DNA of 64,000 nucleotides, taken from Escherichia phage OLB145. The DNA lies in the sequence record MH992123.1; one strand, 5' to 3'. The position numbers were made by a program, and so were the translations under genes. This document shows positions 155 to 4,529 of this stretch, one piece after another; position 1 is the stretch's first letter; every line of letters begins with the position of its first letter. Under the pieces are notes generated by a model. The model was not told where the DNA came from and did not search any database. It worked only from the letters and a program-made list of their open reading frames with translations.

Positions 155-481
155 ATGACTACTCAGGCTAACGTTCGTATGACTGTAGGAACTCTGTTGG
201 GTACTGTTAACGAAGCAGCAACTACTGTAGCTGATACATTCGGTACTGCTACTAAAGCAGTAGGTATGCTTAATCGTTATGTAACTAAACAAGCAGATAA
301 ACAAATCATTCGTGACAAATTAGAAATGCATGAGTTTACTAATAAACTTATTGAAGAAACTGCAATGCAAGAAGCTATTCGTCAGAAACAAATCTTAGAC
401 TTCTGCAAAGATGAACAAAACAAAGAATTGTTCTCTAATGCCTATGACCGTCTTAGCAAAATCTTAGCAGACTCTAAATAA
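155..481 (+). CDS. Hypothetical early protein (108 aa)
   Basis: Track ORF 92..481 begins at TTG; first ATG at 155 is preceded by a GGAGA RBS. Confidence 0.5.
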   Translation: MTTQANVRMTVGTLLGTVNEAATTVADTFGTATKAVGMLNRYVTKQADKQIIRDKLEMHEFTNKLIEETAMQEAIRQKQILDFCKDEQNKELFSNAYDRLSKILADSK

Positions 482-557
482 TAACAAACAAATGGAGGCT
501 CCTCGGAGTCTCCTTTTACATAGAACCGATAGTTCAATAACTATCTACTTTAAAGAT

Positions 558-574
558 AAGAAGCTCCGCTTCTT
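558..574 (+). promoter_or_regulatory. Hairpin AAGAAGC-TCC-GCTTCTT, candidate N4-type virion-RNAP early promoter (P2-like)
   Basis: Template strand reads CCAAAAGAAGCGGAGCTTC, which matches the N4 P2 promoter hairpin as I recall it; flanks ATAAG and TTTTGG are shared with the 4548 site. Confidence 0.5.
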
Positions 575-685
575 TTGGATGAAGTAATGCATCCAATCCT
601 GTATGAAATCTTAACCTTTTGTCTGGGATTACTTACCGACAAAGTAGTCTCAACTAATCAAAATCAACTATCTGGAGAGTACAAA

Positions 686-1072
686 ATGGCTATCACTACT
701 TTTGCTAAAACCTTTGGTCAGGCTTCTACTAAAACTGAATCCAACAATGGTTCTCGTCCGAAAGCTCAGTTCTGGATTAACGTTGGCTATGTAGCTAATG
801 AAGGCACTGAAGATGAACGTTTCATCTCCCTGCCTACTGGTATTCCACTGGATACTCAGGAACATCTGCCAACCAATTCCTCTAACGAAGACTTCCGTGC
901 AATGCGTTGTGCACAGAATGATTTGTTAGACCAACTGATGGAATTTGCTAAGACTCTGGAACCAGGTCAGGAAGGAGTTATCTCACTGCAAGTTCAACTT
1001 CGTCGAGTTAAAGAAGAAGCTCCTGCTATCTCAGCAAGTGAGAATAAATATGCTCGTAAACTGACTTTCTAA
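686..1072 (+). CDS. Hypothetical early protein (128 aa)
   Basis: Track ORF 575..1072 starts at TTG inside the hairpin; ATG at 686 has a GGAGAG RBS. Confidence 0.5.
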
Positions 1073-1080
1073 TCTCTATA

Positions 1081-1106
1081 GGACTACCTTCGGGTAGTCC
1101 TTTTTA
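1081..1106 (+). terminator. Rho-independent terminator
   Basis: GGACTACC-TTCG-GGTAGTCC hairpin followed by a T5 run, just after the stop at 1072. Confidence 0.6.
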
Positions 1107-1214
1107 ATTTTAACTATCTAAATACTAAAGTAGAGATTTTGACCCTTTTCGACGAAGGGATACTAAAAAGTAATGGATAGTTTGAGCAGATGTTTTAGAA
1201 GAAGGAATATACAG

Positions 1215-1529
1215 ATGCATCCTCTTATAAAACGATTCCTGATGGACTATCAGGAGTGGTTAGATAATGGAGCCAGTGAACCTCATTACCTGTTTGATAG
1301 GGGTAGTGGGCTATGTGTTCAACTAGGCAAATATCTTAGAAGACAGCCAATCAGTGAAGAAACAGTAGATACTCTGTGTAAGAGCTTTACTTATTTACTT
1401 CCTGATAATGATACCAATCTACCATTCAATGTAGATGTTCTCGACTACATGATGGAATGTTCTGATGGAAGATGTCATCTGAACCAAAGTCGAATTAATT
1501 GGATTAAGAGTCAGTTGGAGAGTAAGTAA
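1215..1529 (+). CDS. Hypothetical early protein (104 aa)
   Basis: Track ORF 1173..1529; the ATG at 1215 has an AAGGAA RBS at 7-nt spacing. Confidence 0.45.
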   Translation: MHPLIKRFLMDYQEWLDNGASEPHYLFDRGSGLCVQLGKYLRRQPISEETVDTLCKSFTYLLPDNDTNLPFNVDVLDYMMECSDGRCHLNQSRINWIKSQLESK

Positions 1530-1532
1530 ATT

Positions 1533-2311: not shown

Positions 2312-2520
2312 TGCAAACTAAGGATAAGAAAGACTTAGAACGTCTTCTCCGTGTATATGGTGATTATGCATTGTTAGCAGAGATAACTAATATTATCGAA
2401 GAAGACTGTCGTAACGGTTATGCCAATAACCCACAAGCAATAATTCATCGTGATGCAGTAGTGCTTAGAGAAGCAGTCAGTAAGATGCAAGCATTACATC
2501 CATTAAGACAACGAGCATAA
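2311..2520 (+). CDS. Hypothetical early protein (69 aa)
   Basis: ATG start coupled to the upstream ORF; a hairpin and T-run follow at about 2525-2555. Confidence 0.45.
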   Translation: MQTKDKKDLERLLRVYGDYALLAEITNIIEEDCRNGYANNPQAIIHRDAVVLREAVSKMQALHPLRQRA

Positions 2521-2593
2521 ATAGAAGGGGGCTACTAAGCCCTCTTCTTATTTTTATCATGGTTATTAAGCAACTATCTTAGAGGAAGGAATA

Positions 2594-2809
2594 ATGGAAC
2601 AGTTAAATTACGGTTATAAGATTAAACGCAATCAAGTAAGAGGTTCTTGGTTATTTCTCATTTATGGCAAACCAATCTATGAATTACATCGTGGAGAGAA
2701 ATCCAAGACCTATTACGTAACTCATATTGCTACAGGAAAGACTCCTGCATGTACAGGATTGCTTCGTGATGCAATTATGAAAGCATGTATGTTAGAAGGA
2801 CTTCTATGA
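2594..2809 (+). CDS. Hypothetical early protein (71 aa)
   Basis: ATG with GAGGAAGGA RBS. Confidence 0.5.
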   Translation: MEQLNYGYKIKRNQVRGSWLFLIYGKPIYELHRGEKSKTYYVTHIATGKTPACTGLLRDAIMKACMLEGLL

Positions 2810-3120
2810 ACCAAATCATTGCTATCCCGCAGCATAAAGCTCGTATTGCTGACAGGAATATTCGTATTCATTATCCAATGCCTTTGAGCAATCCATTTCA
2901 GAAAAATGAGAGAACCACGGATGAAGATATAGCAGCAGCTTATGAGGCATATCTTCGTAACCGTTTGGTAAGTGGTGACAAGCTCATTACGGCTGAAATG
3001 GAACGAATTGCTAAATTCGTTATGGATGCTACTGACAAACCAGTTGGCCTCATCGGTAATGAACTGGAAGTGAATGTAATCCGTAAGATTATTATGGAGG
3101 CTCTTAATGGGAATCAGTGA
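2806..3120 (+). CDS. Hypothetical early protein (104 aa)
   Basis: Track ORF 2785..3120; the ATG at 2806 overlaps the upstream stop (ATGA) and has a GAAGGA RBS. Confidence 0.5.
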   Translation: MNQIIAIPQHKARIADRNIRIHYPMPLSNPFQKNERTTDEDIAAAYEAYLRNRLVSGDKLITAEMERIAKFVMDATDKPVGLIGNELEVNVIRKIIMEALNGNQ

Positions 3121-3283
3121 ATCCCAGGCTATGGCTATTAAACAGTTAGCCTTCAACTGCCTTAGTGCTATGAAGGCATTTAATGAAGCAAAAACTTTCC
3201 CTGACCAGAATAAAGCTCGTATTCGGCTTTATCAGTCTAAGAAAGATTTTGAAGAATATCTGGAAAGTATTACGGTGAAATAA
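3107..3283 (+). CDS. Small hypothetical protein (about 58 aa), below the track cutoff
   Basis: ATG ORF filling the 3120-3283 gap, start and stop both overlapping neighbours. Confidence 0.3.
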   Translation: MGISESQAMAIKQLAFNCLSAMKAFNEAKTFPDQNKARIRLYQSKKDFEEYLESITVK

Positions 3284-3603
3284 TGAAAACAATATTAATT
3301 GTTCATGATGCTGATTTTAATGATGTTGATAAAATGATGCGTAATATTGATTATGTAGCTCAGACAACTCCAGCATTTAAAGAAGAATTTACTCTATATT
3401 GTGATGCTAATTCACCATTAGTTCCCATTCTGAAAGAAGCCGGTTTACCCTTCTCTACAGATAATTTCCCTGAAGAACCTGATTATGTAATTTCATTTAT
3501 TTATGACTTACATGATGGCTCAGAACCAAGTGAATTGGCTATGAGTCAATGGAAATCCAGAAGACCTGTATATGCATTTCAGGTAGTTAAATCAAGGAGT
3601 TAA
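3283..3603 (+). CDS. Hypothetical early protein (106 aa)
   Basis: ATG start overlapping the previous stop. Confidence 0.5.
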   Translation: MKTILIVHDADFNDVDKMMRNIDYVAQTTPAFKEEFTLYCDANSPLVPILKEAGLPFSTDNFPEEPDYVISFIYDLHDGSEPSELAMSQWKSRRPVYAFQVVKSRS

Positions 3604-3605
3604 CT

Positions 3606-3974
3606 ATGTTAGGTGATAACACTAATGCTCTGTTTGGGGTGTCAGCCAGACCTATTATCATTGTTAATAAACATCATGGTAAGAGAGGTGAATATATTGG
3701 GCGTGGTTCTCCTCTGGGTAATCCATTCGTTATTGGTAAAGATGGAACCAGAGAAGAAGTAATTGCCAAATATAAAGTATGGCTACAAGAACAGATTGAT
3801 AAAGGTAATCCAGTTGTACTGGATGAATTAAATCGTCTTGGTAATAAAGCCATTGATGAAAAAGGATTAGCTTTACAGTGCTTCTGTTATCCAAAACCTT
3901 GTCATGGCGAGGTTATTAAAGAGAAGTTAGTAAAAGCTATGTATAACTACTTTGTGGAAAATCCTAATGGATAA
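3606..3974 (+). CDS. Hypothetical protein with GRGSPLGNPF motif (DUF4326-like, from memory)
   Basis: AAGGAG RBS 6 nt before ATG; the glycine-rich GNPF signature resembles a domain of unknown function recurrent in phages. Confidence 0.5.
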   Translation: MLGDNTNALFGVSARPIIIVNKHHGKRGEYIGRGSPLGNPFVIGKDGTREEVIAKYKVWLQEQIDKGNPVVLDELNRLGNKAIDEKGLALQCFCYPKPCHGEVIKEKLVKAMYNYFVENPNG

Positions 3975-4152
3975 ACAATGCAAATGTGGTAAAGGCTATG
4001 TATCCCAATGGGATGGTAAGTGTGGTCATTGTAGAACCAAGAAAGAACAACGTGACCATGAATATGCACTTCAAGAAATGATTGTACCTGTTGAGAATTT
4101 AGGTATGGCTCCACTTGAGGCTTACAAATATATAAGGAGATTATGCAAATGA
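3967..4152 (+). CDS. Small Cys-rich protein (zinc-ribbon-like, 61 aa)
   Basis: Track ORF 3952..4152 starts at TTG; ATG at 3967; CKCGKG...CGHC pattern. Confidence 0.35.
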   Translation: MDKQCKCGKGYVSQWDGKCGHCRTKKEQRDHEYALQEMIVPVENLGMAPLEAYKYIRRLCK

Positions 4153-4529
4153 AAGAAGTATTCGTATTTGGTTCTAACCTTGCTGGTGTACATGGTGCTG
4201 GTGCTGCAAAGACAGCATATAAGAAATATGGAGCCAGATGGGGTAAAGGGCATGGTCATTATGGGGACAGCTATGCCATTCCCACTAAAGATACCAATAT
4301 CAAAACGATGGCTATTGAAGACATTCGTACATTTGTAAATGCCTTCATTGTCTATGCTGCTAATCATCCAGAACTTAACTTTAAAGTTACTCGTGTAGGT
4401 TGTGGATTAGCTGGTATTGATGATTCTGTTATGGCCTCTATGTTTAAAAATGCCACTGGTAACTGTTCCTTTGACTTAGCATGGAAAAGTTACTTAGGGG
4501 ATGATTTCAACTACTGGGGAACGTTCTAA
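4149..4529 (+). CDS. Hypothetical protein with glycine-rich FGSNLAGVHGAGAA motif (126 aa)
   Basis: AAGGAG RBS at good spacing for the second ATG (4149); the motif looks like a Rossmann-type nucleotide-binding loop but I cannot place the family. Confidence 0.5.
   Translation: MKEVFVFGSNLAGVHGAGAAKTAYKKYGARWGKGHGHYGDSYAIPTKDTNIKTMAIEDIRTFVNAFIVYAANHPELNFKVTRVGCGLAGIDDSVMASMFKNATGNCSFDLAWKSYLGDDFNYWGTF

Follow-up and report, generated by a model that had tools for sequence, protein, structure and literature searches.

Bacteriophage N4 serves as the model for infection by phages whose own RNA polymerase is injected into the host. In the N4 literature this virion RNA polymerase (vRNAP) initiates at hairpin promoters, three of which (P1-P3) are described, each with a GC-rich heptamer centred at -11 between inverted repeats (PMC4496689, PMC13492108). 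Of the small proteins encoded at the left end of the genome, gp1 is reported to be a cofactor required for using the middle promoters of N4 RNA polymerase II, gp2 is a single-stranded DNA (ssDNA)-binding protein that recruits N4 RNA polymerase II (PMC4496689), and gp8, at 71 amino acids, inhibits the replication of host DNA, its target being HolA, a subunit of the clamp loader (PMC6466130 Table 1). Here we analyze the corresponding block of small genes, at positions 155-4529 of a 64,000-nucleotide stretch of Escherichia phage OLB145 (MH992123.1; this whole stretch is referred to below as the window), with emphasis on gp14, for which we predict a macro-domain fold, and on its neighbor gp12, a DUF4326 protein.

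Both of these protein types have described relatives. PhiKZ gp104 (AdfM), a macrodomain resembling DarG2, reverses the ADP-ribosylation of DNA by DarT2, with N23 and K78 as its putative active-site residues (PMC13309987). DUF4326 proteins are predicted ribose-phosphate phosphatases of the rhodanese-phosphatase superfamily that would strip phosphates from the ribose of ADP-ribose derivatives, and the domain is associated with Macro, SLOG and NADAR domains (Iyer et al. 2022, PMC9503650); in addition, a 2025 preprint describes fusions in which DUF4326 is joined to LOG/DprA-like homologues of an anti-Avs protein. In N4-like phages, a hot spot of anti-signalling genes has been located between the primase and virion RNA polymerase genes, with Tad2, Tad3, Acb4 and Sequestin among its contents and a mention of N4 acb4 (bioRxiv 10.64898/2026.06.04.730250).

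Results

The block is the early gp1-gp14 cluster of N4

Over positions 1-6700, the window is 99.7% identical in DNA sequence to vB_EcoP_3HA13 (MK931297) and 98.4% identical to N4 (EF056009 / NC_008720), and both alignments begin at base 1 of those genomes. The interval 155-4529 corresponds to the GenBank genes gp1-gp14 of N4 (EF056009), AlfredRasser and vB_EcoP_3HA13, with 14 coding sequences in matching coordinates and order, and the blocks of N4 and vB_EcoP_3HA13 show only point differences from it. The phage of this window is thus N4 itself at the species level, in agreement with an earlier reading of the sequence alone (the sequence-only reading) that had placed the block in an N4-like early region. 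Genes gp15 and gp16, which encode the two N4 RNA polymerase II subunits, come after the block.

The sequence-only reading had described about 14 small, tightly coupled open reading frames (ORFs), and this description held. The ORF list gives 14 ORFs of 52-145 amino acids, all on the + strand (Table 1), and coding density of the interval is 90% when preferred starts are used (those of gp2 at 686, gp3 at 1215, gp9 at 2806 and gp14 at 4149 differ from some records). Seven of the 13 junctions overlap, by 1-26 nucleotides (nt), three further gaps are 10 nt or less, and an intrinsic-terminator-like hairpin lies in each of the other three, which measure 204, 142 and 73 nt. Every ORF matched a PHROG family (E <= 2e-18), and a Shine-Dalgarno-like motif lies 5' of most of them, being weak for gp11 and gp13. 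Relative to N4, gp1-gp14 carry 73 substitutions, distributed 15/7/51 over codon positions 1/2/3, with 52 synonymous and 21 non-synonymous codon changes. The block is real and coding. Two ORFs that had fallen below the earlier track cutoff and were proposed to fill empty gaps are gp6 and gp10, both already present in GenBank.

gp14 is predicted to have a DarG/TARG1-type macro fold

Structure prediction followed by similarity searching, which had been suggested as a check on the block, gave a confident macro fold for gp14 and, for gp4, matches among predicted viral structures only to uncharacterised or DUF7448 proteins. The AlphaFold2 model of gp14, built from a 55-sequence alignment, has a predicted local distance difference test (pLDDT) score of 95.4 and a three-layer alpha/beta/alpha architecture; its closest structural match is the DarG antitoxin, with Poa1p also among the top matches. 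Alignment of the gp14 family with AdfM by hhalign placed N10 on N23 and K47 on K78 and aligned both glycine-rich loops, at a probability of 41.7%. These residues are the counterparts of the catalytic Asn/Lys pair of T. aquaticus DarG (N22/K80), and within the family alignment N10 is invariant and K47 is at least 90% conserved. At 126 amino acids gp14 is shorter than AdfM (162 amino acids). Searching the PDB with the gp14 profile recovered TARG1 at no better than E ~1. In its modelled fold and motifs gp14 resembles a macro domain of the DarG/TARG1 type; by sequence it falls outside the DarG family, since the PADLOC DarG model detected AdfM but not gp14.

The gp14 family is large (5633 homologues; 376 phage records), and its only NCBIfam name is the uninformative NF049995, 'A1S_2505 family phage non-structural protein'. 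When ten related N4-like (Schitoviridae) loci were compared, from phages of Escherichia, Shigella, Klebsiella, Erwinia, Achromobacter and Pseudomonas, gp14 was the only accessory gene found in all ten, which gives it the broadest conservation of any accessory gene in the block, and it is kept across five Schitoviridae subfamilies and the genus Efbeekayvirus. A role for gp14 as regulator of a phage ADP-ribosyltransferase was considered but found no support, as no such enzyme was detected when ten N4 proteins, of structural or unassigned function, were examined; the 'ADP-ribosyltransferase' label in the RcGingersnap record sits on the gp14 homologue itself. In Klebsiella phage P184 (6160-6822), a gp14-type macro domain makes up the C-terminal half of a 220-amino-acid protein, whose N-terminal extension of ~95 amino acids is without a Pfam match.

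gp12, its paralogue gp9 and the gene order around gp14

The gp12 protein matched Pfam DUF4326 over its full length (E 1.5e-22; 80.4 bits against a cut-off of 25), and its CFCYPKPCHG motif is conserved in five orthologues. DUF4326 is represented in 1355 phage records, T4-type nrdA.1 included. A second protein of the block, gp9, is related to gp12 (BLASTP E 7e-9; both match phrog_464) and scores 21.9 bits against Pfam DUF4326, under the cut-off of 25. The C-x-C...C-H-G motif is absent from the gp9 lineage (N4 gp9, Moo19 gp17 and Axy04 gp13), and the GRGSPLGNP motif is altered, suggesting that gp9 is probably a degenerate, non-catalytic DUF4326 paralogue. In PhAPEC7, a gp9 homologue of 75% identity lies at ~2224-2530, in a RefSeq stretch without an annotated gene.

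The acidic protein gp11 belongs to a very small family (22 clusters; 10 HMMER relatives among 1.8 billion representatives). Two distant relatives of gp11 showed sub-threshold matches to YAcAr (PF10686; E 0.011 and 0.0047), whereas N4 gp11 itself gave no YAcAr match (hhalign probability 6%) and has a 4-residue gap where a glycine-rich nucleotide loop would be expected. Profile searches with gp11 against the PDB returned only E ~1 or spurious matches, sequence searches of the PDB with gp14, gp11, gp4, gp12, gp2 and gp8 returned nothing significant, and seven early proteins had no match among the PADLOC models.

Both PhAPEC7 and Moo19 retain the gene order gp11-gp12-(x)-gp13-gp14, gp13 being conserved in these two phages (subfamily). 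Gutmeister has the order gp11-gp12-(unrelated ORF)-gp14 without a gp13 homologue, and in Achromobacter phage Axy04 a gp9-like gene adjoins the macro gene. Because this pattern of gp9 and gp11-gp14 genes matches that described by Iyer et al. (PMC9503650), we infer an ADP-ribose module within the block.

Promoters, terminators and the expression of gp3-gp14

The heptamer GCTYCGC occurs on the + strand exactly three times in 64 kb, at 94, 563 and 4552, and every occurrence forms part of a hairpin (stem of 5-7 bp, loop of 3 nt) that is followed by CTTWTGG. The sequence of the second hairpin, read as its reverse complement, is that of the P2 template oligonucleotide in the literature (PMC13492108), and all three hairpins are shared with PhAPEC7 and Moo19, where they precede gp1, gp2 and the RNAP1 genes. 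Since the third hairpin of PhAPEC7 and Moo19 likewise precedes RNAP1, P3 is assigned by its sequence context to gp15/gp16 and not to the block. A T run lies 3' of P3 (TTGG after the stem), so this hairpin could double as a terminator for transcripts crossing the block. Another candidate for P3, at 1144-1160, was rejected because it has no GC-rich heptamer.

Terminator-like hairpins are enriched in positions 1-6800 of the window (10 observed, 3.2 +/- 1.9 expected) and sigma-70-like promoter matches are depleted (9 observed, 21.8 +/- 4.5 expected), a combination that fits transcription independent of the host polymerase. The block had been thought to lie directly downstream of the hairpin promoters; this is the case for gp1 (P1) and gp2 (P2) but not for gp3-gp14, which lie behind terminator-like hairpin t2 and, from gp8 onward, also behind t3, and have no vRNAP hairpin promoter of their own, P3 coming after the block. 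Because there is no fourth hairpin, vRNAP would reach gp3-gp14 only via read-through of t2 and t3, and their dose would be set by the leakiness of these terminators. Alternatively, gp3-gp14 may be supplied later by RNA polymerase II transcription.

Characterised products and the remaining small genes

The sequence-only reading had called the products of the block ones of unknown function, only a few of them characterised. Characterised products are indeed few, namely gp1 and gp2 (PMC4496689) and gp8 (PF25713, PMC6466130), and 'unknown function' is apt for most of the others; it does not fit these three, nor gp12 with its DUF4326 domain and gp14 with its macro fold. Homologues of gp1 were found in six related loci at 43-71% identity. 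The annotated start of gp2 (ATG 587) is probably wrong, and ATG 686 is likely the true one: ATG 587 lies ~10 nt from the predicted P2 transcription start and is without a Shine-Dalgarno motif, whereas ATG 686 has GGAGAG upstream, the phrog_4099 alignment does not begin until residue 34 in the 161-amino-acid form, and homologues are 127-141 amino acids long. Residues 1-66 of gp8 aligned to positions 1-62/62 of the PF25713 profile, 'Bacteriophage N4 DNA replication inhibitor', with 67.9 bits against a cut-off of 25.

The remaining genes, gp3-gp7 and gp10, encode small proteins that are predicted to be soluble. They differ in how far they are conserved: gp3 is moderately conserved, gp6 has homologues of 41-50% identity in PhAPEC7 and Moo19, gp5, gp7 and gp10 are essentially species-specific, and gp4 is patchy, with 71 phage records that include a Streptococcus prophage and extend to the non-N4-like 76-79-kb E. 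coli/Shigella phages KBNP1711, NJ01 and SGF2. For gp4, no solved structural relative was found. We rejected gp3 as the sponge 'RyR Tad', since the published sponge uses RyR Repeat12, another domain, and resides at another locus; the weak Pfam match of gp3 was to RIH_assoc, a ryanodine/IP3-receptor-associated domain, at E 0.0012, which is below the cut-off and probably due to chance. The coding status of gp10 appears the least secure of the 14, judged from its sequence: outside N4 species it has one diverged homologue, in Klebsiella phage MY01 (40% identity, E 2e-5), and both of its two differences from N4 are non-synonymous. By analogy with gp8, gp3-gp7 and gp10 are most likely accessory proteins, variable between relatives, that bind host proteins or nucleic acids.

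Names that look spurious are attached to several of these families in the records of PMBT57, VEc25, RcGingersnap, Moo19 and Gutmeister: 'antirepressor' for gp11, 'tail fibers protein' for gp5, 'ribonucleotide reductase NrdA-like' or 'DNA repair protein' for gp12, 'ADP-ribosyltransferase' for the gp14 homologue and 'RNA polymerase 1 subunit A' for gp2.

Table 1. Features of the early block and other loci of the window discussed in the text (aa, amino acids; +1, transcription start)
Feature	Position	Strand	Size	Description
P1	91..103	+		vRNAP hairpin promoter; GTTGC-TTC-GCAAC, heptamer GCTTCGC, predicted +1 ~108
gp1	155..481	+	108 aa	100% identical to N4 gp1; phrog_5020 at 1.3e-46
t1	494..513	+		terminator-like hairpin after gp1; TTTT follows
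P2	558..574	+		vRNAP hairpin promoter; 7-bp stem, loop TCC, heptamer GCTCCGC, predicted +1 ~577
gp2	686..1072	+	128 aa	from ATG 686; 100% identical to N4 gp2; GenBank start 587 (161 aa)
t2	1080..1101	+		terminator-like hairpin after gp2
gp3	1215..1529	+	104 aa	four Cys; homologues of 28-32% identity in Erwinia and Achromobacter N4-like phages
gp4	1533..1970	+	145 aa	invariant His/Cys/Asp cluster H27 H28 C29 H59 D80 C81 H83 D86; mobile accessory gene
gp5	1945..2142	+	65 aa	basic (isoelectric point 10.5); among compared loci, only in N4-species genomes
gp6	2153..2311	+	52 aa	strongly basic; phrog_7648 at 1.6e-26
gp7	2311..2520	+	69 aa	phrog_20789
t3	2523..2548	+		terminator-like hairpin after gp7; 11-bp stem, then T run
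gp8	2594..2809	+	71 aa	Pfam PF25713 N4_GP8 at 1.1e-18
gp9	2806..3120	+	104 aa	DUF4326-fold paralogue of gp12
gp10	3107..3283	+	58 aa	almost confined to N4 species; GGAGG upstream
gp11	3283..3603	+	106 aa	acidic; narrow family
gp12	3606..3974	+	122 aa	DUF4326 (PF14216), motif C-F-C-Y-P-K-P-C-H-G
gp13	3967..4152	+	61 aa	CxC...CxxC zinc-ribbon-like N-terminus
gp14	4149..4529	+	126 aa	predicted macro-domain fold, DarG/TARG1 type
P3	4547..4563	+		vRNAP hairpin promoter; AAGCTGC-TCC-GCAGCTT, predicted +1 ~4566; 3' of gp14, 5' of gp15
Terminator-like hairpin	6681-6706			after gp16
Polynucleotide kinase gene	25746-26351	+		99% identical to AlfredRasser bas69_0037
N4 gp49-family (PF13876) gene	33653-34021	+		adjoins Tad2-like gene in hot spot
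Tad2-like (Thoeris anti-defence 2) gene	34024-34503	+		Pfam E 1.6e-22; inside hot spot, near 34 kb

Discussion

A left-end early cluster with a candidate ADP-ribose module

We consider the whole explanation, taken jointly, to have a probability of roughly 80%: the block is the left-end early cluster gp1-gp14 of N4 (vB_EcoP_3HA13-like), with read-through expression and an ADP-ribose module. According to the literature-based steps of this scheme, gp1 and gp2 switch on middle transcription by aiding the second phage polymerase (gp15/gp16), and gp8 halts host DNA replication by binding HolA. The macro-fold protein gp14, with Asn10, Lys47 and both glycine-rich ligand loops, would form with gp12 an ADP-ribose-directed module, to which gp9, as an inactive paralogue, gp13 and gp11 may also belong. 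This module would strip ADP-ribose from macromolecules, or degrade ADP-ribose-derived molecules, early in infection, most plausibly blunting host immunity based on NAD+/ADP-ribose.

Several observations weigh against this explanation. The PADLOC model of DarG gave no gp14 match at E <= 1, whereas it matched AdfM at 4.4e-39; likewise, gp14 matched no Pfam family at E <= 0.1 and no Pfam macro family. That DUF4326 proteins act as phosphatases is a prediction from the literature, and the link that would make gp11 possibly a degenerate SLOG (YAcAr) domain is very weak. Read-through of t2 and t3 is deduced from the missing fourth hairpin, RNA polymerase II promoters inside the block not having been searched for. 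Finally, counter-defence genes of this phage are not confined to the early block, nor is it the locus for which they have been documented. The sequence-only reading had considered it the most likely place for anti-defence genes; published work instead locates the anti-signalling hot spot between primase and virion RNA polymerase, a locus that in this window holds the Tad2-like and gp49-family genes (Table 1). Counter-defence genes may still be present in the early block, with gp14 and gp12 as our candidates.

On what would gp14 and gp12 act?

One possibility, to which we give a fairly low probability, is that gp12 and gp14 act not on modified macromolecules but on soluble ADP-ribose derivatives, such as ADP-ribose-1''-phosphate, cyclic ADP-ribose isomers or other TIR/SIR2 products, with the macro domain opening or deacylating the substrate, DUF4326 removing a ribose phosphate and gp9 binding. 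The same division of labour was proposed by Iyer et al. for early phage Macro, SLOG, NADAR and DUF4326 genes (PMC9503650). The presence of Poa1p among the top structural matches of gp14, the neighborhood of DUF4326-type and macro genes in several subfamilies, and the sequence of gp9, which appears to retain the fold while losing the Cys/His motif, are consistent with such a role. However, it is a prediction throughout, and N4-like phages already have dedicated sponges (Tad2-like and gp49-family genes) at another locus.

Rather doubtful is the proposal that gp14 is a specific anti-DarT factor that removes ADP-ribose from the thymidine of ssDNA, as DarG2 and PhiKZ AdfM do, and thereby protects transcription from hairpin or single-stranded templates. 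N4 transcription does use ssDNA-binding proteins and hairpin or single-stranded templates (PMC4496689), N10 and K47 align with the catalytic Asn and Lys of AdfM and DarG, and gp14 is the sole accessory early gene to be kept across the five subfamilies and Efbeekayvirus. On the other hand, the DarG hidden Markov model that readily detects AdfM misses gp14, the hhalign probability against AdfM is only 41.7%, and we found no reports of N4 sensitivity to DarT in the literature. A broader version, to which we also give a low probability, is that gp14 founds a second phage family of DarG-fold ADP-ribosylhydrolases, Schitoviridae-wide and distinct in sequence from AdfM, which would guard hairpin/ssDNA transcription against ADP-ribosylating toxins or signals derived from ADP-ribose, with gp12, gp9 (as binder or decoy) and gp13 as partners and its dose set by terminator read-through from P2.

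It is improbable that the macro and DUF4326 genes serve RNA or nucleotide housekeeping, for example by clearing ADP-ribose-phosphate by-products of tRNA repair. N4 encodes a polynucleotide kinase (a possible RNA-repair link for these genes) and four tRNAs, macro domains have been linked to RNA repair, with a NADAR role also suggested (PMC9503650), and T4-type nrdA.1, a DUF4326 gene, lies among nucleotide-metabolism genes. Nevertheless, the annotated part of the genome contains no KptA/Tpt1-type ADP-ribosyltransferase or RNA ligase, no ADP-ribosyltransferase was found among the proteins tested, and the early block in which the two genes reside is distant from the kinase gene. Least probable of all is that the smallest ORFs, gp10 above all, are untranslated space-fillers: gp10 is nearly confined to a single species and both of its N4 differences are non-synonymous, yet its ORF is intact in 14/14 N4-species records, an ORF of 40% identity to it is present in MY01 (E 2e-5), the upstream GGAGG is strong, and its start overlaps gp9 while its stop overlaps the start of gp11.

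What the assignment changes

The block is already known, being annotated in the model phage with three characterised genes, and macro and DUF4326 domain labels are already present in the AlfredRasser record. What is new here is the fold assignment of gp14 and the mapping of its active site, with DarG as a negative control, the recognition of gp9 as a probable degenerate DUF4326 paralogue, the corrected promoter layout and the likely true start of gp2. Nine of the 14 first-expressed N4 genes are without a published function or recognisable domain, and pinning the block to N4 avoids counting it as a discovery and narrows the work to a handful of specific questions: whether gp14 acts in counter-defence and, if so, against which system; whether DUF4326, with its more than 1300 phage genomes, does remove phosphate from ADP-ribose derivatives; why gp9, seemingly a dead copy, is retained; and by what route gp3-gp14 come to be expressed when no promoter belongs to them. 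The most promising lead is the putative ADP-ribose module centred on gp14. If the prediction for gp14 is true, it would be the second macrodomain anti-ADP-ribosylation factor after AdfM, and it might account for which hosts the N4-like phages used in therapy can infect.

Comparison with known systems

The viral DUF4326 genes described by Iyer et al. lie near a macro gene, as gp12 does in N4. The N4 arrangement differs in that the domains are carried by separate small proteins instead of fusions and in that there is a second DUF4326 copy, gp9, without the Cys/His motif. In a broader sense, the block resembles the takeover genes of T7, whose Gp0.4, Gp2 and Gp5.5 are short proteins, first made after infection, that each disable one host machine, and alongside which N4 gp8 has been listed (PMC6466130). 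Unlike genes of the T7 type, the N4 block would be transcribed from DNA hairpins by an injected phage polymerase and not by the polymerase of the host.

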